Assembly: GCA_934101795.1 (NCBI GenBank)
Contig: CAKORY010000002.1
Coordinates: 25,200 to 89,199 of the forward strand
Origin: an uncultured Bacilli bacterium
GTDB lineage: Bacteria > Bacillota_I > Bacilli_A > RF39 > UBA660
Length of the DNA stretch: 64,000 nt
Direction of reading: 5' to 3'
Position numbers and translations under genes: made by a program. A model generated the notes under the pieces. The model saw only the letters and a list, made by a program, of their open reading frames with translations, ran no database searches and was not told the origin of the DNA. This document shows, piece by piece, positions 4,072 to 51,808 of the stretch (the first letter of the stretch is position 1; each line of letters starts with the position of its first letter).

Positions 4072-7000
4072 ATGAAGTTTTTAGATGATTATTTTAATTA
4101 TGAAATTGGAACGGAAATATCTGGTTTAACTAATGAGTTAAACGTTTTTTACATTGATAAATTAGGTGAAAAGTTTGATAGAAATATAATTGTTCTTACA
4201 AGTTCTTTGTTTGAAGCTAATAAAATATATGATAATTTAGTTAAAATGCATGATAATACTTTACTTTTTCCAATGGATGATTTTTTGTCATCTATGTTGG
4301 TGGCAAGTAGTCCCGAACTTAAGTATAAAAGACTTGAAACTTTAGATAAATTAAAAAGTGGTAATAAATATATTATAGTTACAAATTTAATGGGGTATTT
4401 AAAATATTTACCTAGTGCAAGTATTAAAAATTTTATTGATATTAAGAAAAATGATATTATTAAACGTGATGATTTAGTTAAAGAAATGGATGACTTAGGT
4501 TATCATCGTGAGTCTTTAGTAACAATGTCCGGAGAGTATGCTGTTCGTGGATTTATTTTAGACTTGTATCCGATTGATTATGATCATCCGATTAGAATTG
4601 AATTTGATGGTAATGTAATTGATAATATAAAATATTTTGATGAAAATACACAGATGTCAAATAATGATATTCATGATATTAAAATTAAGGCTATTGATGA
4701 AATTGTATCAAGTGATAAAAATTCGTTATTTGATTATGCAAATAATCCTTTGGTAGTTTATGTGGATAAATCTCAGATTGAAGCTTCATATTCTAAGTTA
4801 CTTGATGATATATCGGAATATAAAGAGTCAAATGAAATAACAAATGATTTAATGTATTCTTTAAATGATATTCATGATACTGATAGAATATATGTTAATT
4901 TATTTGCTAGTGAAGGTTTAAATTTGAACGCTCAAAGTATTATAAATTATAAGGAAAATTTTGAAAAATTATCTGCGGATTATGATGCTTGGATTAAAGC
5001 TGGAAAAATAGTATATTTTTATTTAAGTAAAGTAGAAGAAAAGAAAAAGTTACTTAAGATTATACCTAGTGCTCATATTGTAATGAAAGAATTATCTCAT
5101 GGTTTTATACTGGATAAGTATGTAGTTATTTCTGAAAATGATATTGAAGATGTAAAAGTAAGTAATGGAGTTTATAAAAATAATTTTCATGTTGGTAAAA
5201 GAATAAAGGATTTTAATCAACTCGAAAAAGGAGATTATGTTGTTCATATTTCTCATGGTATTGGTATTTATCAGGGAATTACCACGCTTTCTGTTCGCGG
5301 TGTTCAAAAAGATTTTTTAACAATATTTTATGAAGGATCTGATAAGATTTATGTGCCTGTTGAAAAAATAAATTTAATATATAAATATACTGGTAAAGAT
5401 GGAATAAAACCTAAACTTAATAAACTTGGAAGTACAAACTGGGAAAAAACTAAAAAATATATTTCTGAAAAAGTTAAAGATATTTCTAGAGAACTTATTA
5501 TTCTTTATAAAAAAAGATTAGAACTTAAGAAAAAACCTTATAAGGATTATCCTGAAGAAGATGTGTTTGCTAGTGAGTTTAAGTATGACCTTACGGTGGA
5601 TCAAGCTAAAGCAGTCGTAGAAATTAATAATGACTTGAAAAAAACTAATCCGATGGATAGGTTACTTTGTGGTGATGTAGGTTTTGGTAAAACTGAAGTT
5701 GCTATGAGAGCTATGTTTAAGGCTGTTTTAAATAATGAACAAGTACTTTATTTGTGTCCAACTACTATTCTTTCAAAACAACAATATAATGTTGCAAAAG
5801 AAAGATTTAAAAATTGGCCAATAGAAATAGCCCTTTTAAATAGACATGTAAGTGTTAAGAAAGCTAAAGAAATACTGGAAGATTTAAAGAATGGCAAAAT
5901 TGATATATTGTTTGGTACTCATAGGATACTTAGTGATGATATTGTTTGTAAAAATTTAGGCATGTTGGTAGTTGATGAAGAACAAAGATTTGGTGTTACT
6001 CATAAAGAAAAAATTAAAACCATGAAAAGTGATGTTAATGTTTTAACGCTTAGTGCCACTCCGATACCTAGAACATTAAAGATGGCTATGTCTGGTCTTA
6101 GAGATTTATCAGTTATCGATACACCACCAGTTAATAGATATCCAGTTCAGACTTATGTAGCAGTTGAAGATGATTTTTTAATTAAAGATGCTATTTATAA
6201 GGAATTAGCTAGAAAAGGACAAATATTTATTCTTTATAATAGAGTGGAAACAATTGAAAAATATATGAAACATATAAAAGATTTGATTCCAGATGCTAGA
6301 ATAAATTTTGCACATGGTAAAATGGAAAAAGATGAGCTTGATAGCATAATGACATCATTTATAAATAATGAATTTGATATTTTAATTTGTACAACAATAA
6401 TTGAAAGTGGAATTGATATTCCAAATGTTAATACTTTAATAATTCATGATGCAGATAATTTTGGCCTAAGTCAGCTTTATCAAATTCGTGGTCGTGTGGG
6501 TCGTAGTGATAAGGTTGCTTATGCTTATTTAATGTATGAAAAAAATAAAATGCTAAATGATATTGCTATTAAAAGGCTCAATACTATTAAGGAATTTACA
6601 GAACTTGGTAGTGGATATAGAATTGCTATGAGAGATTTAAGTTTACGGGGTGCAGGTGATGTATTTGGGGCTTCTCAGGCTGGTTTTGTGGATAGTGTTG
6701 GTATTTCCCTTTATATGAAAATGATTGAAGATGAAATTAAACGTCAACGCGGAGAGAAAGTGGAAGATGAAGATACTGAAACTCAAGCTTTAATTAATGT
6801 AAATACCCATATTAGTGATACATATGTAACTGATGAAGATATTAAAATTGAAATACATCAAAAGATTAATGAAATTGATTCTTATGAAAAATTATTAGAA
6901 ATAAAAGGTGAACTTGAAGATAGATTTGGTAAAGTTACTCAAGATATGCTAGTTTATATGTATGAAGAATGGTTTGAAAAACTTGCTAAAAAATATAATA

Positions 7001-7789: not shown

Positions 7790-8034
7790 TTGAATTAAAC
7801 TAAGATTTATGATAAACTAGTTTTAATTAACGAAGAAGGAAAGAGTAGATATCATTCGTTTCATAGAGATTTTTTGGTTGGTGGAAAAGAAAAGATGAAG
7901 ATATTCGAACATGGCTCTGGAGTTAAAAGCGGGTAATTACGTTATAAATTTTAAGTTGCATGATAAATCATGAATTAAGGTGGTACCGCGGGTTATACTC
8001 GTCCTTAGTTTGTGGTTTTTTTATTGGAGGAAAT
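7790..8034 (+). promoter_or_regulatory. T-box riboswitch-like leader (candidate Met specifier) upstream of dut-metG
   Basis: near-consensus T-box sequence aattaaGGTGGTACCGCGGg at ~7972-7991 (consensus AATTAGGGTGGNACCGCGG), followed by T-run; AUGA candidates in the upstream region. Confidence 0.55.
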
Positions 8035-15940: not shown

Positions 15941-17587
15941 ATGGATATAGTCAAAGTTACATTTAATGATAATACTGTTCACGAGTACAGAAAAGGTACT
16001 TTGTTTTATGATGCAAGTAAAGACTTTGATATGGAAAATATTGTTGGTTATAAAATAAATAATGAAGTATTTTCTTTAGATAATAAAATTCTTGAAGATG
16101 TAAAAATAGATTTTATAAATACAAATGATTTGATTGGAAATAGAATTTATAAAGCAGGCTTAAAATTTTTGTTTTTAGTGGCATTGCAAGAAGTTTTTAA
16201 TGGTTTTGATGTTTCGTTTGAACATAGTGTTCCAAGAGGAATGTTAGGAATTATTGAAGGGACTCGTATACTTACTCAAGAAGATATTTCTCTTATTAAA
16301 GAAAAAATGTGTAAAATAATTAGTGACAATGAAATAATTACTAAGTTAAATGTATCTCCGAAAGATGCAATTAAGTATTATAGAGATAAAAAAGAGTATG
16401 AAAAAGCAAATAATATACAAAATATAAGTGATAAGGTTGTTAATTTATATAAACTTAAAAATAAACTTAATTATTTTTATTCGTTAATGCCTTATAGTAC
16501 AGGAGTTTTAAATAAGTTTGAACTAGTTTATTTGGGAAATAATAGGGTAATACTTTTGTTTCCTACGACTAGAAGCAACGGAAATGTTCCTGAGTATGTT
16601 CATTATGATAAGATTATTGATAGTTTTGCAAGTGGAAAAAAATGGCTTGAAAAGTTAAATATGCCATATGTTACTGATTTAAATAAAGATGTTGGTAATG
16701 GAAAAATAATTAACTTTATTAAATCTAGCGAACTTGTATTTAATTTAAATATTGCCGGGGCTTGTAAAGAAATAGAACAAAATAAAGATATTAAGTTTAT
16801 ACTTATTGCGGGGCCTTCATCAAGTGGAAAAACTACTACAACAAGTAGGTTAGCATCATATTTTGAAGCTTTAGGTTATAATCCAATTAGTATTAGTTTA
16901 GATGATTATTTTGTAAATAGAGATGATACTCCAAAAGATGAAAATGGTAATTTTGATTTTGAATGTTTAGAGGCATTAGATGTTAAATTGTTTAACGAAA
17001 ATTTAAAAAGATTACTGGCGGGTGAAAGTGTTAAGTTTCCTAAATATAACTTTATGACAGGTCTTAGAGAATACTATAAAGATGAAGTTAAAATGACTGA
17101 TAAAAGTGTTTTCTTAATTGAAGGGTTGCATGCGTTAAATGATGAACTTACAAAAGATGTTGATGCTAAGTATAAATATAAAATTTATTTGAGTCCATTT
17201 ATTCCTTTGAGTATAGATAAATACAATTATGTATCAACGCTTGATTTACGGTTGCTTAGAAGAATAGTTAGGGATAATAGAACACGTGGATATGATGCTT
17301 TAAAAACTATTGATAATTGGCAAAGTGTAAGAAATGGAGAAGAAAAATATATATTTCCGTATATACATCAAGCTAATACAATAATTAATACAGCCCTTCC
17401 ATATGAAGTTGGGGTTTTGAAGGTTTATGTAGAGCCGCTTCTTTTATCAGTAAGTGTGGATAACATTTATTATGAGGAAGCTAGAAGATTAGTGGATTTT
17501 TTAAAACAATTTTTTCCAATACCGGGAGAATATGTTAATGATGAATCAATATTGCGTGAATTTATAGGAGGAAGATATAATGATTAA
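15941..17587 (+). CDS. TGS-domain/uridine-kinase-family fusion protein (ThrRS-like N-domain + P-loop nucleoside kinase)
   Basis: N-terminal TGS-like region; Walker A IAGPSSSGKTTT; PRK/uridine kinase-like C-terminal region; 548 aa. Confidence 0.65.
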   Translation: MDIVKVTFNDNTVHEYRKGTLFYDASKDFDMENIVGYKINNEVFSLDNKILEDVKIDFINTNDLIGNRIYKAGLKFLFLVALQEVFNGFDVSFEHSVPRGMLGIIEGTRILTQEDISLIKEKMCKIISDNEIITKLNVSPKDAIKYYRDKKEYEKANNIQNISDKVVNLYKLKNKLNYFYSLMPYSTGVLNKFELVYLGNNRVILLFPTTRSNGNVPEYVHYDKIIDSFASGKKWLEKLNMPYVTDLNKDVGNGKIINFIKSSELVFNLNIAGACKEIEQNKDIKFILIAGPSSSGKTTTTSRLASYFEALGYNPISISLDDYFVNRDDTPKDENGNFDFECLEALDVKLFNENLKRLLAGESVKFPKYNFMTGLREYYKDEVKMTDKSVFLIEGLHALNDELTKDVDAKYKYKIYLSPFIPLSIDKYNYVSTLDLRLLRRIVRDNRTRGYDALKTIDNWQSVRNGEEKYIFPYIHQANTIINTALPYEVGVLKVYVEPLLLSVSVDNIYYEEARRLVDFLKQFFPIPGEYVNDESILREFIGGRYND

Positions 17588-18584
17588 AGTAGCAATTAAT
17601 GGTTTTGGTAGAATAGGTAGACTTGCTTTTAGGCAAATAGTTACACAAACAGATTTTGATATAGTAGCTATTAATGATTTAACAAGTGCAGAGGATTTAG
17701 CTTATTTAGTTAAATATGATACAGTGCATGGTTCTTTTCATGAAGATGAAATTAAAGCAGAAGGTAATGAAATAGTAGTGGCAGGTGTTAAGAGAATTAA
17801 GGTTTTTAGTGAAACTGATCCAGCTAATTTACCTTGGGGTGAACTTGGAGTTGATTTAGTACTTGAATGTACTGGTAAGTTTACTCAAAAAGAAGATGCA
17901 ATGAAACATATTACTGCAGGCGCTAAAAAGGTACTAATTAGTGCACCTGGTAAAGGTGATATGAAGACAATTGTTTACAATGTTAATGATAATATTTTAA
18001 CAAATGATGATGTTATAGTAAGTGCAGCGAGTTGTACAACAAATTGTTTAGCACCAGTTGTTAATATTTTACAAAAGAATATTGGTATTAAAAAAGGTTT
18101 TATGACTACTATTCATGCTTATACAAATGATCAAGCAACTCTAGATATAGCACATAAAAAGGGTATTAAATCAAGACGTGGTAGAGCTTGTGCTCAAAAT
18201 ATTGTTCCATCTAGTACAGGAGCTGCTAAAGCAATTGGTTTAGTTATTCCTGAACTTCTTGGTAAATTAGATGGTAGTGCATTAAGAGTTCCTACTGCTG
18301 ATGGTTCTGTTGTGGATTTAACATTAGAACTAAACAGAAATACAAGTGTGGAAGAAATTAATAAATTATTTAGTGAAAATCAAAATGAAACAATTAAATT
18401 TACAATGGATCCAATCGTTTCAAGTGATTGTCTAGACAAAAAGGTTGGGGCAATAGTTGATGGACTTTCTACAAGTACTCTAGAATCTGATGGTTCTCAA
18501 CTTGTTAAAGTACTTGCTTGGTATGACAATGAATATGGTTATACTGCTCAAATGCTTAGAACTGCTAAAAAAATGTTTCAATAA
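17580..18584 (+). CDS. gap: Glyceraldehyde-3-phosphate dehydrogenase
   Basis: INGFGRIGR NAD-binding motif, active-site SAASCTTNCLAP; 334 aa. Confidence 0.95.
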   Translation: MIKVAINGFGRIGRLAFRQIVTQTDFDIVAINDLTSAEDLAYLVKYDTVHGSFHEDEIKAEGNEIVVAGVKRIKVFSETDPANLPWGELGVDLVLECTGKFTQKEDAMKHITAGAKKVLISAPGKGDMKTIVYNVNDNILTNDDVIVSAASCTTNCLAPVVNILQKNIGIKKGFMTTIHAYTNDQATLDIAHKKGIKSRRGRACAQNIVPSSTGAAKAIGLVIPELLGKLDGSALRVPTADGSVVDLTLELNRNTSVEEINKLFSENQNETIKFTMDPIVSSDCLDKKVGAIVDGLSTSTLESDGSQLVKVLAWYDNEYGYTAQMLRTAKKMFQ

Positions 18585-18589
18585 AAATA

Positions 18590-18616
18590 AACTCTCAATA
18601 ATTTGAGAGTTTTTGT
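18590..18616 (+). terminator. Rho-independent terminator after gap
   Basis: aactctcaa taatt ttgagagtt ttt. Confidence 0.7.
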
Positions 18617-18700
18617 GTGTCTTTAAAAAGTTAATAAAACTTCTTTTAATAATGATTTTATTACAGCTATTTGCCATTTTTGTGTTAGTTATAAAATAAA

Positions 18701-18790
18701 AAACGCATCTAAATCAACGGGGGTGATTTAGATGCACCAAAACAAATTGATAGCATCCAATCTCTGAAAAAACTGGATGTTACTTTTTCT
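18701..18790 (+). ncRNA. Conserved two-hairpin intergenic element, copy A (candidate sRNA / REP-like repeat)
   Basis: ~90 nt with 12-bp perfect stem gcatctaaatca/tgatttagatgc and second stem catcca/tggatg + U-run; near-identical copy at 48921-49010. Confidence 0.45.
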
Positions 18791-20405
18791 ATTTTTTTAT
18801 TTTTTTATTAAATTTATTTAATAATCTATCTCCGAGGAGTTTGTTAAGTAAGTCTTTATTCATTAAATAATAAAGTATTAGACAAATAAGACCTATAAAT
18901 CCTAGAGCTAGTAACATATAGAATTTACCATTAATATGATTAAATATAACTGGTTTAATAATTAGACATATTGCTATTAATATTGCTATTGTTAATATAA
19001 GTTTTGGTATTGATTTAACTGTTTCTTTATAACTAAAGTTGTATTTATGATGTAATGTATAAAGCGGAATTATTAATGATAATATATAACCAATCGTAGT
19101 TGCGAGTATTGCTCCGTAGAACGGATATATACCAATTTTATTAAATAATAATATCAATGGAATATCTAATATTGTTTTGGTAATTAATCCGGTTCCACAA
19201 GATATATAAATTAGTTTTGTTTTCGACAAACCTTGTAGAGCACTGCATATCATTATGTAAGCGGAATCTAATATTGCAAGTAATATTGTATATTTGAATA
19301 TTAATGGACCATAGAAGCTTTTACCATAAAATATTGTCCAAACTTCTTTTGAAAAGATGCTTAAGAATATTGAAAGTGGTAATATTACATATAATAGCAC
19401 TTGAAGTGTTTTATTAAATTGTGAGTTTACTTCTTTCATATCTTTTTTTGTGTAAGACTCCACAATTGTGGGAATTAGGCTTATTACAAGTCCTGTTGCA
19501 ATTGCAGTTACTACACTTACAAGTTTACTTCCCCAGGTGGTAAATACTGAGGAAATTGTTTCAATATCCCCAGCTGGGTAACCTATCCAATTTAAACCTT
19601 TGATAACTAGTATCATATCTACAGTATTATAAATACTATTGGCAACGTTGATAACAATAAATGGTATACAATAACCAATTAGTTTTTTAAATATTGTTTT
19701 CTTTTCATCTTTGGATACTTCTTCATATGGTACAAATAAATCTTTTTTTACTTTGTTTGTTTTAATAAGTAGGTAAAGATATGAAACTAGAGCACCTGCG
19801 CATGCTCCGAATACAGCAATACCAACAGCCTCTGCAATTGATAAATGGAATACTTTAAGTGCTAAGTAAGAACCGACAATAATTACTAGAACTCTTACAA
19901 ATTGTTCAATTACTTGTCCAATGGATGGGGCAGCGATATAATGGTGTCCTTGTAAGTAACCTCTGAAGATACTTAAAAGTGGTACAACTAAAATGGCAAA
20001 TGATACACATCTGATTACAAATGCAACATCCGATACTGTGTTTCCTCCAGTTAAATCACCAACTATAGCATTTGCTATTAAATTTGCTCCAAAGAAACAA
20101 ATACAAAACGATACAATTGAGAATATTCTTATAATTTTTTGCGAATATTTAAACATGTAAGTTTTTTCTTTCATTTTACCCAATGTGTTGTATTCGCTTG
20201 TGATTTTACTTATTGCAAGTGGAATACCTGCGGATGATATAATTAAAAAGAAATTGTATATATTGTATGCATAACCATATAAGGAACCACCATTTTCACC
20301 AATAATATTATAAAATGGAATTACATAAAGAACTCCGAGTATTTTGGATAAAATTATGGCTATGGTTGCTATAAGAGCACCTTCGATAAATTCGTTTTTT
20401 TTCAA
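18789..20405 (-). CDS. MOP-superfamily polysaccharide/lipid-linked oligosaccharide flippase (SpoVB/MurJ-like)
   Basis: 538 aa, ~14 TM segments, basic C-terminal tail; family-level call only. Confidence 0.55.
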   Translation of the reverse strand: MKKNEFIEGALIATIAIILSKILGVLYVIPFYNIIGENGGSLYGYAYNIYNFFLIISSAGIPLAISKITSEYNTLGKMKEKTYMFKYSQKIIRIFSIVSFCICFFGANLIANAIVGDLTGGNTVSDVAFVIRCVSFAILVVPLLSIFRGYLQGHHYIAAPSIGQVIEQFVRVLVIIVGSYLALKVFHLSIAEAVGIAVFGACAGALVSYLYLLIKTNKVKKDLFVPYEEVSKDEKKTIFKKLIGYCIPFIVINVANSIYNTVDMILVIKGLNWIGYPAGDIETISSVFTTWGSKLVSVVTAIATGLVISLIPTIVESYTKKDMKEVNSQFNKTLQVLLYVILPLSIFLSIFSKEVWTIFYGKSFYGPLIFKYTILLAILDSAYIMICSALQGLSKTKLIYISCGTGLITKTILDIPLILLFNKIGIYPFYGAILATTIGYILSLIIPLYTLHHKYNFSYKETVKSIPKLILTIAILIAICLIIKPVIFNHINGKFYMLLALGFIGLICLILYYLMNKDLLNKLLGDRLLNKFNKKIKK

Positions 20406-46424: not shown

Positions 46425-46587
46425 AGAGTGCTTAGGCATTCTTTTTTTGAAAATGTAATAATTTATTTTTTTTACATAATGAAAGCATTTAAAACTAAGT
46501 ATTTTTATGATATACTGGAGTTGAATTTAAATTTGAAAAAACTATATATAGGTGTTATAATAATTCCTGATTTAGGAGGTGACTTTT

Positions 46588-47289
46588 TTGCATAATAAAA
46601 TTTTGGTAGCAGAAGATGATACGGATATAGTAGAACTTCTTAAACTTTATTTAGAAAGTAATGGTTTTGAAGTGACATCAACATACGATGGATTTGAAGC
46701 TTTGGATGCTTTTAAAAAAGGTAATTATGATATTATAATTGCAGATTTAATGATGCCCGGCTTAAATGGTTATGAACTTATTAAAATTGTAAGAGAAACT
46801 AGTAATATTCCTATAATTATTGTATCTGCTAAAAATATGGATAGTGATAAAGTTCTGGGACTTGATATCGGTGCTGATGCTTATATAACTAAACCATTTA
46901 ATCCTTTGGAGTTAGTTGCTTATGTTAAAGCACTTCTTCGTAGATATTATGAGTTTAAAAGTTTAAATAATGAAATTAATACCTTAAATGTTGGTGAACT
47001 TTCTCTTGATTTAAGTAAATATATTTTTATGAAAAATAATAAAATTGTGCCCCTTACATCAACTGAAATTAAAATACTTGCAATGATGATGAAGTCACCT
47101 GGTAAAGTATTTACAAGGAGCCAAATTTATGAATGTATAAATGGTAATTTTTATGATACTGATGATAATACCATGATGGTTCATATTTCAAATATAAGGG
47201 GGAAAATTGAGGATAATCCTGCAAAACCAGAGTATATAAAAACAGTTAGGGGGTTAGGTTATAAACTTGAAAATAAAGAAGAATTATAG
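46588..47289 (+). CDS. OmpR-family response regulator
   Basis: receiver domain (ILVAEDD...D...IADLMMPGLNG...K) plus winged-helix C-terminus (GYKLE); likely TTG start 10 nt after GGAGG (ORF track GTG at 46579). Confidence 0.85.
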   Translation: MHNKILVAEDDTDIVELLKLYLESNGFEVTSTYDGFEALDAFKKGNYDIIIADLMMPGLNGYELIKIVRETSNIPIIIVSAKNMDSDKVLGLDIGADAYITKPFNPLELVAYVKALLRRYYEFKSLNNEINTLNVGELSLDLSKYIFMKNNKIVPLTSTEIKILAMMMKSPGKVFTRSQIYECINGNFYDTDDNTMMVHISNIRGKIEDNPAKPEYIKTVRGLGYKLENKEEL

Positions 47290-48841
47290 TTTTAGCAAAT
47301 ATATTATTATTCAATTTGCTATTTACACATTAATTATTTTAGGGGTTGCTTTATTAACATATTTATCAATTAATTGGAGGCTTAATAATAGTTTCTTAGT
47401 ATTGGATGATTTTCTTCTTTATAAAGAAAAACTTGAGTATGAAGATTATGATGGTATTCCAATGTCTAAGTTTCCTGGCTGCGATTTTGCCATATATGAT
47501 GAAAATAATGAACTTATTTTTACAACTGATGGTGATGTAAATGATATTGTTGAAGGTGATGACTTAGAGTTTGTTAACGATTATAGTGGAACTTATTATT
47601 ATAATATTTTTAATTACAAAGAAAAAAATAGAGATAAAATATATAAAATATATAAAACCACATATGATGCTGAAATTGATGAAGAAATAGTTATTGGTAA
47701 TGCTAAATTAAATGAAGACTTGGAAATAGTTGATGGCAATCTTTTTAATGAGAAAAATAGCTTAACTGAAAGAGAACTTAATTTACTAAATGGTTATTAT
47801 AATGATGAACAAATGGTAGAAAAGTATGAATATGTAACATCTGGTAATGGATTAAAGAGAACTTTGCTTTTTATGTCACCGACATTTACTGCGGAAAGCT
47901 ATGATTCTGCGGTTTCTGATTCTAGTAACGTGTGGTTTATTTCTATTCCAATTTTGATAATTATTATTATAATTGAAACTTATATATTTAATCGTAGAGT
48001 TAAAAAAATCTTAAAAGAATTAAATAAAGTTATTTCATCTTATGAAAATGAAGAAATTATTGTAAATGATACGAATTTACCAAAGGAATTTGATGAAGTT
48101 GCAGAAAGTTTTGAAAATTTAATGGAAAAATTAAAAAAATCAAATGCAGAAAAAATTAAAATTTATGAAGATAAACAAAAATCTATTGCTAATTTATCTC
48201 ATGATTTAAAAACCCCCCTTACTGTTATTAGTGGGTACTCAAAAGCATTTTTAGATGATTTGGTTCCTGATAATAAGAAAAGACAATATATGGAGAGTAT
48301 CAATAAGAAAGCGTGCGTTGCAACAGATGCTATTGATTCATTGTTTTTATATACACATATGAATAATTCAGAGTATAGTTTATGTAGAGAAAAAATAGAT
48401 ATAGTAACATTTACTAAAGAATATTTAGCGGAAAAATATAATGAAATTGAATCTGCTGGTATGTATTTAGAAGTAGATATTAAAGTGAATAAAATAATGT
48501 TTGATGCTGATAAAAATGCTTTCAGAAGAATATATGAGAATATAATAAATAATTCTATTAAATATAATAAAAAAGGAACTAAGATATATTTTAAAATGTG
48601 GAAAGATAAAACGTTAAATATAGTAATCGGAGATGATGGCATTGGAATTGATAAAGAAATAAAAGATAGATTATTTGAACCATTTGTTACAAGTAATAAA
48701 GCTAGGACATCTGGTGAAGGTACTGGACTGGGACTTGCAATTGTTAAAAACTTTGTAGAACTTCATGATGGTGAAATAGTTTTAGTAAGTAAAGCACATA
48801 GAAAAATGAAGACCGAGTTTTTAATGAAATTTAAAATTTAA
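47267..48841 (+). CDS. Sensor histidine kinase with ~170-aa extracytoplasmic sensor domain
   Basis: two TM segments flanking periplasmic-type domain; H-box LSHDLKTPLT; HATPase motifs GDDGIGI, GTGLGLAIV. Confidence 0.85.
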   Translation: MKIKKNYSFSKYIIIQFAIYTLIILGVALLTYLSINWRLNNSFLVLDDFLLYKEKLEYEDYDGIPMSKFPGCDFAIYDENNELIFTTDGDVNDIVEGDDLEFVNDYSGTYYYNIFNYKEKNRDKIYKIYKTTYDAEIDEEIVIGNAKLNEDLEIVDGNLFNEKNSLTERELNLLNGYYNDEQMVEKYEYVTSGNGLKRTLLFMSPTFTAESYDSAVSDSSNVWFISIPILIIIIIIETYIFNRRVKKILKELNKVISSYENEEIIVNDTNLPKEFDEVAESFENLMEKLKKSNAEKIKIYEDKQKSIANLSHDLKTPLTVISGYSKAFLDDLVPDNKKRQYMESINKKACVATDAIDSLFLYTHMNNSEYSLCREKIDIVTFTKEYLAEKYNEIESAGMYLEVDIKVNKIMFDADKNAFRRIYENIINNSIKYNKKGTKIYFKMWKDKTLNIVIGDDGIGIDKEIKDRLFEPFVTSNKARTSGEGTGLGLAIVKNFVELHDGEIVLVSKAHRKMKTEFLMKFKI

Positions 48842-48920
48842 TAAGTAATTTGTTGCTAAAATAAAACAAGTATATACATGTATATACTTGTTTTTATGCT
48901 GTAATAAATAACAATATAAG

Positions 48921-49010
48921 AAAAGCATCTAAATCAACGGGGTTGGTTTAGATGCAAACCACTAAATTGGTAGCATCCAATCTCGACAAAAACTGGATGT
49001 TCCTTTTATT
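48921..49010 (+). ncRNA. Conserved two-hairpin intergenic element, copy B (in leader of Dlt-like cluster)
   Basis: ~85% identical to 18701-18790 with same two stems (gcatctaaa.../...tttagatgc; catcca/tggatg) and U-rich 3' end; located after HK terminator hairpin (48860-48895). Confidence 0.45.
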
Positions 49011-49148
49011 ATATGCAAATCTTCTTTGCTAAATACATAAATAACATAAATGTGGCTAAAAGTCAAATTCAATTTCTTAATAAAAATTAAGATTTGGTTA
49101 AGAAATAATTTATTATATTAATGTATAATTGTTTTGAGGTAAAAATGT

Positions 49149-50633
49149 ATGAAAAGCGTATTAGAATATTTAGAAAATATTAGTAATGATAATAAAGTAA
49201 TTGATAAAAATGGAAGTATTACTTATAAAGACTTGCAAGTGGTTAGTAAAAAAATAGGTAGTGGACTTGCAAAGTATGTTAAAAATAATGCCCCCGTTCC
49301 AGTTTATATGGAAAAAGGAATTTCTTGTCTTGAAGTTTTTATGGGAAGTTTGTATGCTGGTGGCTTTTATAGTTTACTTAATGCTGGACTTCCAAAAATG
49401 AGGCTTGAACAAATAATTAATGTTTTAGATGTAGATTATGTAGTAACTGATAAAGAACATTTGGAAAATGCTAAAGAATTTTTTCCTGATAAGGAGTTAA
49501 TACTTTATGAAGACTTGGTTGATAGTGAAATAGATGATGAATCGCTTTCTAATATTAGAGCTAGAAAACTTGATGTTGATCCTGTTTATGCAAATTTTAC
49601 AAGTGGTTCAACAGGTGTACCTAAAGGAGTTGTGGTTGGAAATCGTTCAATAATTGATTTTATAGATAATTTTACAAGTACCTTTGGGATTAATGAAACT
49701 GATATTATTGCTAATCAAGCCCCATTTGATTTTGATGTTTCTGTTAAAGATATATATCCAGCTTTAAAAACAGGAGCAACACTTGTTATTGTTCCTAAAG
49801 AATTATTTTCAAGACCTGCGGAGCTTATTGATTTTTTGGTAGAACATAAAGTTACAACGATGACTTGGGCAGTGTCTGCACTTTGCTTAATTTCGACATT
49901 TCATGGTTTAGATTATAAAGTGCCTGAAACAGTTAAAAGAGTTATGTTTAGTGGTGAAGTTATGCCAATGAAACATTTAAAAGAATGGATGAAACACTTA
50001 CCAAATGCAACTTTTGTTAATTTGTACGGGCCCACTGAAATTACATGTAATTGTACTTATCATATTATTGATAGAAATCGTGAATATGAAAAAATACCTG
50101 TTGGTATACCATTTAATAATGAAGATGTTTTCTTGTTAGATGAAAATAATAAATTGGTTGAAATTAGCGGAATAAAAGGGGAAATATGTGTTAGAGGCAG
50201 TGCACTTGCACTTGGTTATTATAAAAATAAAGAACAAACTGATAGAGCATTTGTTAGAAATCCATTAAATGATAAGTATATAGAATATATTTATAGAACT
50301 GGAGATCTAGGTTATTATGAAAATAATGATTTGTATTTTGGAGGAAGAAAAGATTTTCAAATAAAATATATGGGACATAGAATTGAGCTAGAAGAAATAG
50401 ATAAAGCTATTGGTAGTTTTGATGGTGTAGAAAGAGTTTGTTCTATATTTAAAGAAGAAAAAAGTAAACTTTATGCCTTTTATATTGGTGACATTGAAGT
50501 AAAAGAATTACATGAAAAGTTATCTAAAGAGTTACCAGTATTTATGATACCTAGTAAATTTGTTAAATTAGAACAAATGCCTTTAACTAAGAATGGTAAG
50601 ATTGATAGAAAGAAATTGGAGGAATTTATATGA
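49149..50633 (+). CDS. DltA-like carrier-protein ligase (stand-alone adenylation domain, ANL superfamily)
   Basis: adenylation core motifs FTSGSTGVPKGV, YGPTE, GEICVRGSALALGYY, YRTGD, GRKDFQIKYMGHRIELEEID, LTKNGKIDRKKL; 494 aa like DltA. Confidence 0.8.
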   Translation: MKSVLEYLENISNDNKVIDKNGSITYKDLQVVSKKIGSGLAKYVKNNAPVPVYMEKGISCLEVFMGSLYAGGFYSLLNAGLPKMRLEQIINVLDVDYVVTDKEHLENAKEFFPDKELILYEDLVDSEIDDESLSNIRARKLDVDPVYANFTSGSTGVPKGVVVGNRSIIDFIDNFTSTFGINETDIIANQAPFDFDVSVKDIYPALKTGATLVIVPKELFSRPAELIDFLVEHKVTTMTWAVSALCLISTFHGLDYKVPETVKRVMFSGEVMPMKHLKEWMKHLPNATFVNLYGPTEITCNCTYHIIDRNREYEKIPVGIPFNNEDVFLLDENNKLVEISGIKGEICVRGSALALGYYKNKEQTDRAFVRNPLNDKYIEYIYRTGDLGYYENNDLYFGGRKDFQIKYMGHRIELEEIDKAIGSFDGVERVCSIFKEEKSKLYAFYIGDIEVKELHEKLSKELPVFMIPSKFVKLEQMPLTKNGKIDRKKLEEFI

Positions 50634-51808
50634 TAGATAGTAAAACTATTGAAAGTATTGGAACACCATTTTATGTATTTGATATTGATGTTTTGAAAAA
50701 CAGAATAAATTATCTTAAAAGTATGTTGCCAGAAAATGTTCATTTATGTTTTGCAATGAAAGCTAATCCTTTTGTAGTTAAAGAAATAGAGGATACTATA
50801 GAAAAGTATGAAATATGTTCTTATGGTGAATGGAATATTGCAAATGAGCTTGGAGTTACACATGAAAAAATGGTTATATCAGGTGTTTATAAAGATGAAA
50901 CTAGCATGATAGATATAATTAATCATTATAAACATGGTGAAGTTATTACAATTGAATCATTAAATCAAATAAAATTAGTTGATAAAATAACTAAAGATAA
51001 AAATGTTGTCGTGGATGTAATTTTAAGACTTACAAGTGGTAATCAATTTGGTATGAGTGAAGAAGAAATAATATCCATTTTGGAAAATAGATCAAAATAT
51101 AATATGTTAAATATTATGGGTATTCAATATTTTTCGGGAACTCAAAAAAAATTATCAAGAAGAATTATAAAAGAACTTGAATATGTTGATGACTTTGTTC
51201 AAAAATTAAAAAATGAATTAGGTTTTGTAACTGAAGAATTAGAGTTTGGTCCTGGTTTTCCCGTTATGTATTTTGAAGCAGAAACTGATTTTGATGAAAA
51301 TACATACTTAATGGAAATTGCTGATAAGATAAAAAATTTGAAATATCAAGGTCATATTACAATGGAACTTGGAAGAAGTATTGCGGCATCATGTGGAAGT
51401 TATTATACTAAAGTTGTTGATAAAAAAACAAATAAAGAAGGAAATTTTGCTATTTTAGATGGTGGTATGCATCATATTGTGTATTATGGTCAAATGATGG
51501 CAATGAAAAAACCGATGTTGGATATAATTCCTAGAAGAAGTGGAAATGAAGAAAATTGGAACTTAGTTGGAGCATTATGTACAATTAATGATTTAATTGT
51601 TAAAGGATTACCTGTTAAAAGTTTAGAACTTGGTGATGTTTTTGTTTTTAAAAACACTGGTGCTTATGCTATGACTGAAGGAATTAGTTTATTCTTAAGT
51701 CGTGATTTACCTAAAGTTTTATTTGTTAAAGATGGTAAAATAGAAGTGGTTAGAAGTAATATTCAAACTTATAAATTAAATATGCCATTTAAAGGAGGTG
51801 AAAATTAA
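50630..51808 (+). CDS. Fold-type III PLP-dependent decarboxylase (Orn/DAP/Arg decarboxylase family, LysA-like)
   Basis: GTPFYVFDIDVL... FAMKANPF (PLP-Lys), CSYGE, D-GGM..., ELGRS (EPGR-like), C-terminal GALCTINDLIV (CESGD-like) motifs. Confidence 0.7.
   Translation: MIDSKTIESIGTPFYVFDIDVLKNRINYLKSMLPENVHLCFAMKANPFVVKEIEDTIEKYEICSYGEWNIANELGVTHEKMVISGVYKDETSMIDIINHYKHGEVITIESLNQIKLVDKITKDKNVVVDVILRLTSGNQFGMSEEEIISILENRSKYNMLNIMGIQYFSGTQKKLSRRIIKELEYVDDFVQKLKNELGFVTEELEFGPGFPVMYFEAETDFDENTYLMEIADKIKNLKYQGHITMELGRSIAASCGSYYTKVVDKKTNKEGNFAILDGGMHHIVYYGQMMAMKKPMLDIIPRRSGNEENWNLVGALCTINDLIVKGLPVKSLELGDVFVFKNTGAYAMTEGISLFLSRDLPKVLFVKDGKIEVVRSNIQTYKLNMPFKGGEN

Follow-up and report, generated by a model that had tools for sequence, protein, structure and literature searches.

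What is the function of an element of roughly 90 nucleotides (nt), with two hairpins and a T-rich tail, that occurs twice in a stretch of 64,000 nt (hereafter the window) from an uncultured Bacilli bacterium (RF39, UBA660; contig CAKORY010000002.1, positions 25,200 to 89,199)? An earlier note, made from the letters of this DNA, had proposed either a small RNA gene family or a repeat resembling repetitive extragenic palindromic sequences and bacterial interspersed mosaic elements (REP/BIME). Our analysis of both copies and of their relatives makes it likely that the element is the stretch where sense and antisense RNAs overlap, at the core of a chromosomal module of the type I toxin-antitoxin kind that exists in multiple copies, and that both copies in the window are decayed. 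Sequence architecture, conservation, strand-specific pairing and deletions are what we observe, and they are described below before the module is compared with known systems and with other explanations.

The element and its relatives

The two copies are found where the earlier note had placed them, copy A at 18701-18790 and copy B at 48921-49010. Their similarity is high as claimed; the measured value is 74 of 90 identical positions without gaps (82%) and not the approximately 85% given before. It breaks off sharply at both ends with flanking 10-mers at chance level, while one 18-mer common to both copies (GCATCTAAATCAACGGGG) occurs exactly twice against 0.00 occurrences expected by chance. 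A local duplication that included the flanks, which the note had named as an observation that would speak against its proposal, is not seen: the flanks lie outside the repeat and are unrelated between the copies.

Both copies fold into the described two hairpins, followed by the T-rich tail, with z-scores of -5.1 to -6.9 compared to shuffled sequences. Hairpin 1, the long hairpin, has its arms at 18705-18716/18724-18735 in copy A and at 48925-48938/48942-48955 in copy B, and the CATCCA/TGGATG arms of hairpin 2 are located at 18754-18759/18774-18779 and 48974-48979/48994-48999, respectively. An A-U to G.U change had been taken as preserving the pairing, which is correct for the plus strand (TGATTT to TGGTTT) but not for the minus strand, where a C.A mismatch results. 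It was also rightly noticed that a separate terminator hairpin precedes each copy, one after the gene gap and one after a histidine-kinase gene, so that the elements are not merely the terminators of the genes upstream.

Further copies were then found outside the window. A scan of representative genomes with the 18-mer returned four real copies, all from uncultured low-GC gut bacteria (loci L002, L003, L007 and L010, with records labelled Erysipelotrichaceae for L002, Tenericutes for L003 and Bacilli for L007 and L010), and a metagenome scan with hairpin 2 as the pattern returned 72 loci, mostly from human gut samples. The relatives hence comprise 76 loci from gut metagenomes and metagenome-assembled genomes, and together with the window 79 copies were available. 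These fall into about 8-10 distinct chromosomal sites whose flanks are not part of the repeat; neighbours of the module are gap and MurJ-like, histidine-kinase and DltA-like, or ValRS-like and acyltransferase-like genes. No contig carried more than two scan matches, and there was no match in a scan of IMG/VR viral contigs or in blastn searches of phage and plasmid records. A covariance model built from the relatives matched the 64-kb window only twice, with 121.5 and 100.1 bits and both times on the minus strand, and neither motif searches nor an unfiltered search with this model detected additional copies there.

Architecture of the module on the two strands

Intact relatives show what the element belongs to. 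Their module covers about 400 bp and consists, on the plus strand, of a promoter, a 5' untranslated region (5'UTR) with a sequence complementary to the Shine-Dalgarno (SD) sequence (anti-SD), the SD itself, a hydrophobic open reading frame (ORF) and, as 3'UTR, the element, which begins directly after the stop codon of an ORF of 24-29 amino acids (aa). On the plus strand the element is therefore the 3'UTR of a small hydrophobic-peptide mRNA in these relatives and not the free-standing small RNA that had been envisaged. Such an ORF is encoded by 35 of the 79 copies, in which an ATG or GTG preceded by an SD (GAGGTGAT or GGAGGT) is located approximately 135 nt upstream of hairpin 2. The encoded peptides, which are treated here as putative toxins, belong to three sequence types (MKAREDLIKLLLIIILLQLFAILALIIK; the MNVKDIFILMQFCIIIFLLIIIFIIVK type; and the MFKKDFLILGLWIIIILLILTLMFK / MTKDGMILGLWLIIILLILVLIVR type), have grand averages of hydropathy (GRAVY) of 1.75-2.46 and share a layout in which a short charged N-terminus precedes some 20 hydrophobic residues, with K or R as the last residue in most cases. 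Nine of ten peptide sequences that were looked up are absent from a collection of 15 billion proteins, and the tenth is recorded there as a "hypothetical protein" of 62 aa, in which one toxin ORF is extended upstream.

Copies with the ORF also have in common a sigma-70-like plus-strand promoter (e.g. TTGCTA-N17-TGnTAGAAT) and the 5'UTR motif ATGGAATATCCAGTTGATTGGATGCTRCC. Within the 5'UTR, the motif ATGGAATATCCAGTT(T)GATTGGATGCTRCC precedes the anti-SD CCTCTT; in the RNA, a hairpin is followed by this anti-SD (CCUCUU), which pairs with the SD GAGGUGAU. The helix between the two is kept by compensatory changes (UA in 6, AU in 5 and UG in 2 cases at one pair, CG in 11 and UA in 2 at the next), and the SD is paired in the minimum free energy fold of 23 of 23 unique intact mRNAs. 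Hairpin 2 together with the T-run is the predicted plus-strand terminator of the peptide mRNA. Moreover, the hairpin in the toxin 5'UTR has nearly the same sequence as a hairpin of the antisense RNA described below, i.e. the two form an inverted repeat in the DNA, and consequently the 5'UTR of the mRNA is complementary to hairpin 2 in its own 3'UTR. In silico, a 5'-3' helix of 23-29 pairs is formed in 23 of 23 unique intact modules, and the predicted full-length toxin mRNA of L010 (247 nt) folds with -86 kcal/mol and a z-score of -8.2 including this end-to-end helix.

On the other strand, almost every copy conserves a stretch of about 75 nt on the right side of the element. It reads as a near-consensus sigma-70 promoter, which in the family alignment has the form TTGACA-N17-TGnTAATAT (or TACGAT, or TATTAT). 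After approximately 7 nt the promoter is followed by a GCAAA-N5-TTTGC hairpin and the segment AUGGAACAUCCAG...UUGGAUGCUACC; next come a small, weak hairpin and then the long one with a U-run. The antisense RNA predicted from this order would be about 110 nt long with three hairpins and would end at the 12-13-bp hairpin and U-run just past the toxin stop codon. The extent of about 90 nt that was originally assigned is too short, since the RNA gene runs some 40 nt further right to its predicted start, or about 75 nt including the promoter. The idea of a small RNA gene family survives in so far as the repeated element is tied to a small RNA, but the strand of the RNA gene is the minus and not the plus strand.

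Pairing patterns support this strand assignment. The 5' hairpin GCAAA-N5-UUUGC is kept in 40 of 41 unique relatives, with 99% of its positions paired. Hairpin 2 comprises 6-7 bp on the plus strand and 10-11 bp on the minus strand as a result of G.U pairs, and family-wide its 4-bp extension is 97.6% canonical when read as minus-strand RNA (102 G.U cells) versus 35.4% when read as plus-strand RNA. The long hairpin pairs about equally well on either strand (92% and 93%), and because it shows G.U changes on the plus strand only, transcription of both strands would fit. The two RNAs are perfectly complementary over about 80-90 nt and have two staggered terminators, with the plus-strand RNA predicted to end after hairpin 2 and the minus-strand RNA after the big hairpin.

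Where the two RNAs would meet is indicated by the antisense 5' domain. Comparison of its 34 nt with the toxin 5' region by RNAduplex gave z-scores between -2.8 and +1.3, most of them close to 0. Contacts were predicted away from the SD and the start codon, and the domain lies mostly outside the overlap. Since complementarity to the toxin start region does not exceed chance, an interaction through the 3' overlap is suggested; a mechanism like that of Fst or SprA1, in which this domain would pair in trans with the toxin ribosome binding site (RBS), was rejected on the same grounds. Another candidate, a minus-strand promoter just upstream of hairpin 2 (TATAAT, 49011-49016), was dismissed because this hexamer is not conserved, whereas the upstream TTGACA-N17-TGnTAATAT is. 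A generic promoter scan gave match counts at or below the level of shuffled sequence in this DNA of 27% GC.

From this architecture we infer transcription of both RNAs, toxicity of the peptide and an antitoxin action of the antisense RNA, which might work as follows. The antisense RNA would pair with the 3'UTR of the toxin mRNA and form a long duplex, which in known systems is a substrate for RNase III. The same pairing would displace the mRNA's own 5'UTR from the 3'UTR segment with which it may form the 23-29-bp helix when the antisense RNA is absent. As the net effect, the peptide would be kept unexpressed.

Copies A and B and the decay of the module

The two strands of the module are retained to a different extent, with the antisense promoter motif kept in 78 of 79 copies versus 35 of 79 for the toxin 5' region. 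Several of the larger sites hold both intact and toxin-less alleles. Typical deletions extend from the terminator of the upstream gene to a few codons before the toxin stop and preserve the antisense terminator, and orphan antisense genes are the commonest state of the module, more than half of the copies being without the toxin ORF. These orphans could be retained as protection against toxin copies elsewhere, they could have a separate role, or their predominance could simply reflect frequent and recent loss of the toxin.

Copy B is an example of this state. Its features are:

48863-48894, plus strand: terminator of the histidine-kinase gene (47267-48841), a perfect 32-nt palindrome
48901-48920, plus strand: deletion junction GTAATAAATA/ACAATATAAG, from the alignment with orthologous loci
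48918-49030, minus strand: predicted antisense (antitoxin-like) RNA of about 110 nt (covariance match 48920-49030, 121.5 bits)
48925-48955, both strands: 13-14-bp hairpin with U-run, on the minus strand the predicted terminator of the antisense RNA
48958-48971, minus strand: small middle hairpin (ACCA...UGGU), weakly supported by single-sequence folds
48974-48999, minus strand: hairpin 2, from folds; its plus-strand complement pairs with the toxin mRNA 5'UTR in intact relatives
49015-49029, minus strand: antisense 5' hairpin (GCAAA-N5-UUUGC), from pattern match and family conservation
49037-49066, minus strand: antisense promoter, with -35 box TTGACT at 49066-49061 and a -10 box with a 1-nt insertion

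The start of the antisense RNA was placed according to the promoter position and its end according to the terminator. Loci L002, L003 and L010 are orthologs of the copy-B locus with 91-98% DNA identity and are intact, and a further ortholog, L033, has the same deletion as the window. About 212 bp with the toxin promoter, 5'UTR and SD are lost through this deletion, and of the ORF, which was of the L002 type, the final two codons and the stop are all that is left (48911-48919). In intact relatives the plus-strand equivalent of the hairpin at 48925-48955 is the first 3'UTR hairpin of the toxin mRNA. The small middle hairpin is absent from the consensus fold of the family. The -10 box reads TATTTAT, compared to TATTAT (with upstream TG) in the orthologs; the additional A/T (within 49037-49044) is unique to the window among the five orthologous sequences aligned and could be either a real mutation that weakens the promoter or an error made in assembling a homopolymer-like stretch. 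Judged by its sequence, copy B is a putative orphan antisense gene that has lost its toxin and has a -10 box with slight damage.

Copy A has lost parts on both sides, and its features are:

18589-18612, plus strand: terminator hairpin of gap (17580-18584) with a 10-bp stem, from the terminator scan; left break of the copy-A remnant
18631-18699, plus strand: 5'-truncated toxin ORF remnant with the last 22 codons (LIKLLLIMILLQLFAIFVLVIK) and stop, from similarity to relatives
18700-18788, minus strand: antisense RNA body without promoter and 5' hairpin (covariance match 18700-18812, 100.1 bits)
18705-18735, both strands: 12-bp hairpin (GCATCTAAATCA / TGATTTAGATGC), from folds; on the minus strand, with U-run, an intrinsic terminator
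18754-18779, minus strand: hairpin 2 (CAUCCAG...UUGGAUG), with 10-11 bp on this strand only via G.U pairs

Similarity to the orthologous loci L049 and L057 reaches 18613/18614 and then breaks. The ORF remnant shares 85-89% identity with the toxin genes of L003, L010, L049, L080 and L081 in their 3' part; toxin promoter, 5'UTR, SD and start codon are missing, and the mechanically called ORF at 18613-18699 starts with TTG and has no SD. At the same site downstream of gap, L049 carries an intact module with about 380 extra bases on the left, and in L057 the core is separated from the MurJ-like stop codon by about 60 nt that hold the antisense promoter and 5' hairpin. Compared to these orthologs copy A thus lacks about 380 nt on the left and about 60 nt on the right. 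No antisense promoter was matched at copy A in the promoter alignment, which makes it the sole copy of 79 without this motif.

Copy A abuts the stop codon (18789-18791) of the MurJ-like gene (ORF 18789-20405, minus strand), and the terminator scan calls its hairpin 1 a terminator on the minus strand (18738-18702, tail TTTTATTTTA). Because it starts right after that stop codon, it is expected to be the 3'UTR and terminator of the MurJ-like gene, and this is most likely how copy A acts now; it probably serves as the terminator of this convergent gene. A role as 5' leader is precluded on either strand by its location between the convergent gap and MurJ-like genes. For copy B we also considered a riboswitch or leader of the downstream DltA-like gene, which was rejected in view of the location of copy A between convergent genes, the many gene contexts of the family and the promoter facing the opposite way.

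Several observations were made at the sites themselves. Between gap and the module, L057 (411-2976) contains about 2.5 kb of extra DNA with an ORF for a 177-aa membrane protein and one for a 518-aa, Cys-rich, secreted-looking protein; on account of this DNA the gap/MurJ-like site can be regarded as an insertion/deletion hot spot. The surroundings of copy B in the window (46579-51808, plus strand) comprise a response-regulator and histidine-kinase pair, copy B and a gene for a DltA-like adenylating enzyme (49149-50633), the end of which overlaps the beginning of an ORF resembling a pyridoxal phosphate-dependent decarboxylase (50630-51808); these assignments were made by reading the translations. 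Elsewhere in the window, a T-box leader at 7824-8009 (plus strand; 106 bits versus a gathering score of 93) is the sole Rfam match.

Among the relatives, the histidine-kinase/DltA-like site holds two unrelated types of toxin ORF, MNLKDIVIIAQF... and MKAREDLIKLLL... (L002 5921-6123 on the minus strand versus L003 3096-3296 and L010 7082-7286), around which promoter, 5'UTR, core and flanks are nearly identical in L002 compared to L003 and L010. This suggests that the coding part is swapped like a cassette between module copies. The MFKKDFLILGLW... toxin has a conserved Trp codon, TGG, which is changed to TGA in L021 (core match 4279-4310, minus strand); either a nonsense mutation has inactivated this ORF, or the organism may decode TGA as Trp. 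Two members of site cluster 2,3, L013 and L056, have an intact toxin ORF and 5'UTR but the terminator of the upstream gene in place of the usual promoter, and therefore expression would depend on read-through.

Tandem pairs of modules, approximately 330-430 nt apart, were found in L066 (421-533 and 773-888), L019 (80-190 and 451-560), L060 (9519-9629 and 9950-10054) and L076 (3118-3222 and 3544-3656), and in the latter three the second copy is far more divergent (50-83 bits). The divergent copy of L019 is toxin-less and has two compensatory double changes in hairpin 1. In addition, the antisense model gave weak matches of about 41 bits on the strand of the true antisense gene but about 260 nt past it, near the toxin promoter and 5'UTR (L034 3530-3596, L045 1853-1919, L052 2488-2554, L061 4449-4515, L068 537-603, L075 7045-7111 and L020 4944-5010), which may reflect the shared hairpin sequence.

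Known systems and alternative explanations

Type I systems of Gram-positive bacteria have been described with an antisense RNA on the 3' side of the toxin gene, convergent transcription, a long complementary region and a sequestered SD (T1TAdb, PMC8594479; a review on Clostridia, PMC6563280), and it is because the organisation of the module matches such descriptions (PMC8594479, PMC6563280, PMC7472228) that we favour a type I system. General features of these systems are recovered as well. A small (<60 aa) hydrophobic ORF with its own RBS is present in 35 of the 79 related copies, with the truncated ORF of copy A and the two codons of copy B remaining in the window itself; a cis antisense RNA with its own promoter and terminator is recognizable at the sequence level; and the SD is sequestered in the mRNA fold.

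Closest in layout are the Bacillus subtilis systems txpA/RatA, bsrG/SR4, bsrE/SR5 and yonT/SR6, in which convergent genes overlap 3' to 3' by tens to more than 100 nt (PMC6563280, PMC8594479). With txpA/RatA and bsrG/SR4 the module shares the small hydrophobic peptide, the buried SD and a long duplex that points to decay of the RNase III type (PMC6563280, PMC8594479). It differs from the B. subtilis systems in that peptide and RNA show no sequence similarity (no match in Rfam, Pfam or NCBIfam), the peptides are shorter (24-29 aa) and have no charged tail, the overlap does not include the ORF, and the antisense-bound 3'UTR segment is also the partner of the mRNA's own 5'UTR. Binding of SR4 at the 3' end is said to remodel the RBS region, as reportedly found by Jahn and Brantl in 2013.

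The par locus of Enterococcus faecalis (Fst/RNA II) likewise has convergent promoters and a small ORF followed by terminator hairpins used in both directions, as well as an intramolecular helix burying the SD and a helix sequestering the 5' end of the mRNA (PMC7472228). Tandem and chromosomal copies are a further common trait. Unlike Fst (PMC7472228), the peptides have neither a PXXXG motif nor a charged C-terminal tail, and no P is found in any peptide type. Direct repeats corresponding to DRa/DRb are lacking, the antisense 5' domain has no above-chance complementarity to the translation start, and two staggered terminators with an overlap of about 80-90 nt contrast with the one shared bidirectional terminator of par. 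The module is not a member of the Fst/par family.

With hok/Sok of plasmid R1 and aapA1/IsoA1 of Helicobacter pylori the module has in common, in silico, an mRNA closed by a long 5'-3' interaction and a sequestered SD. Both hok and aapA1 use a translationally inert fold-back mRNA design. They are Gram-negative systems without any sequence relationship to the module, and their antisense RNAs target the 5' part of the mRNA, whereas here it would be the 3' arm of the end-to-end helix. Systems of the CD2517.1/RCd8 type in Clostridioides difficile, also a low-GC gut Firmicute, resemble the module in their unannotated small ORFs, convergent antisense RNAs, long complementary region and lack of homology to other toxin families (PMC6563280). 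In C. difficile the toxins have 34-59 aa and lysine-rich tails and are encoded next to CRISPR arrays or in prophages; the modules described here are located between housekeeping genes. Rfam, proposed earlier as a check, has no family for the element: nothing relevant was returned for the whole window at gathering thresholds or for both copies and one intact relative at E<=10. The family itself seems to be new to the literature, while systems of this kind are well known.

Some results weigh against a type I system. The peptides have no match in Pfam (E<=10), NCBIfam or PADLOC and belong to no known toxin family, and where type I toxins typically have a charged C-terminal tail, most of the peptides have a single K/R or none. 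The SD is paired in every predicted conformation, which leaves the route to translation of the peptide unexplained, and the toxin ORF is missing in more than half of the copies, so that the antisense RNA may have a role of its own. Covariation in the antisense RNA, which had been proposed as a check, is weak, as the high uniformity of the family leaves little room for it (effective sequence number 1.3, two antisense pairs with double changes, unimpressive shuffle controls); two compensatory double changes are present in the divergent L019 copy. Hairpin 2 was fixed in the search pattern of the metagenome scan, and its stem is invariant by design.

The same lack of a known toxin family and of charged tails would be expected if the ORF encoded a non-toxic small membrane protein with a cis-antisense regulator, and the ORF-less copies were free-standing small RNA genes with targets elsewhere. 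Retention of the antisense promoter in 78 of 79 copies, as against 35 of 79 for the ORF region, would suggest that the RNA is kept for its own sake. We nevertheless consider this explanation rather improbable, because the extreme hydrophobicity (GRAVY about 2), the multi-copy and tandem arrangement (L066, L019), the tightly locked mRNA with paired SD and paired 5' and 3' ends, and the repeated and independent loss of the ORF with the antisense gene being kept are all hallmarks of type I systems (PMC6563280, PMC8594479). Much less credit still is given to the small RNA gene family on the plus strand that was originally envisaged, with hairpin 1, a spacer and hairpin 2 as terminator. The plus strand does fold well (z about -5), and changes in hairpin 1 yield G.U on the plus but C.A on the minus strand (15 of 41 sequences, one pair), from which it follows that plus-strand RNA structure also matters. 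But the plus strand has no conserved promoter directly ahead of the element, the window copies have unrelated upstream flanks, the element in intact relatives directly follows a stop codon as the 3'UTR of the peptide mRNA, and both the conserved promoter and the strand-specific hairpin extension are on the minus strand.

A non-coding repeat spreading through intergenic regions, similar to REP/BIME or to miniature inverted-repeat transposable elements, could account for a multi-copy, intergenic and palindrome-rich sequence located after terminators and for the inverted repeat of about 30 nt formed by the 5'UTR hairpin and hairpin 2. It is hardly compatible with a unit that combines two promoters and an SD with a conserved ORF of fixed frame, shows neither terminal inverted repeats nor target-site duplications at its borders, and is present in two copies per 64 kb and in low number per contig, with no match in viral contigs, phage or plasmid records; this part of the earlier proposal we judge very unlikely. 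Duplicated bidirectional transcription terminators with no further role would explain the position of copy A between convergent genes and the minus-strand terminator called there by the scan. They leave promoter, 5' hairpin, the ORF and 5'UTR of the relatives and the separate upstream terminators unexplained, and the chances of this explanation appear very slim.

Within the favoured type I reading a more specific proposal can be made, in which all parts taken together are speculative and rather doubtful. The module might represent a new type I family of uncultured low-GC gut Bacilli, the antitoxin of which would carry a near-copy of the toxin 5'UTR hairpin (AUGGAAYAUCCAG...UUGGAUGCUACC) and break the 5'-3' cyclisation of the mRNA by occupying the 3' arm instead of masking the RBS; many loci would retain an orphan antitoxin, its consensus promoter intact, because it confers immunity (anti-addiction) to toxins encoded by other copies in the genome.

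For the window, the result is mostly clarifying, in that the two elements would be remnants and not a new class of RNA. Type I loci are almost never annotated, as their ORFs are below the length limits of gene callers, and the family would extend these systems to an uncultured gut lineage with related records labelled Tenericutes, Erysipelotrichaceae or Bacilli. The predicted design, in which an antisense RNA resembling the 5'UTR is directed against the 3' arm of an end-to-end helix, is a testable variation of established modes of regulation, and intact, toxin-deleted and promoter-deleted alleles at the same sites provide a compact natural series for the decay and co-option of such modules.

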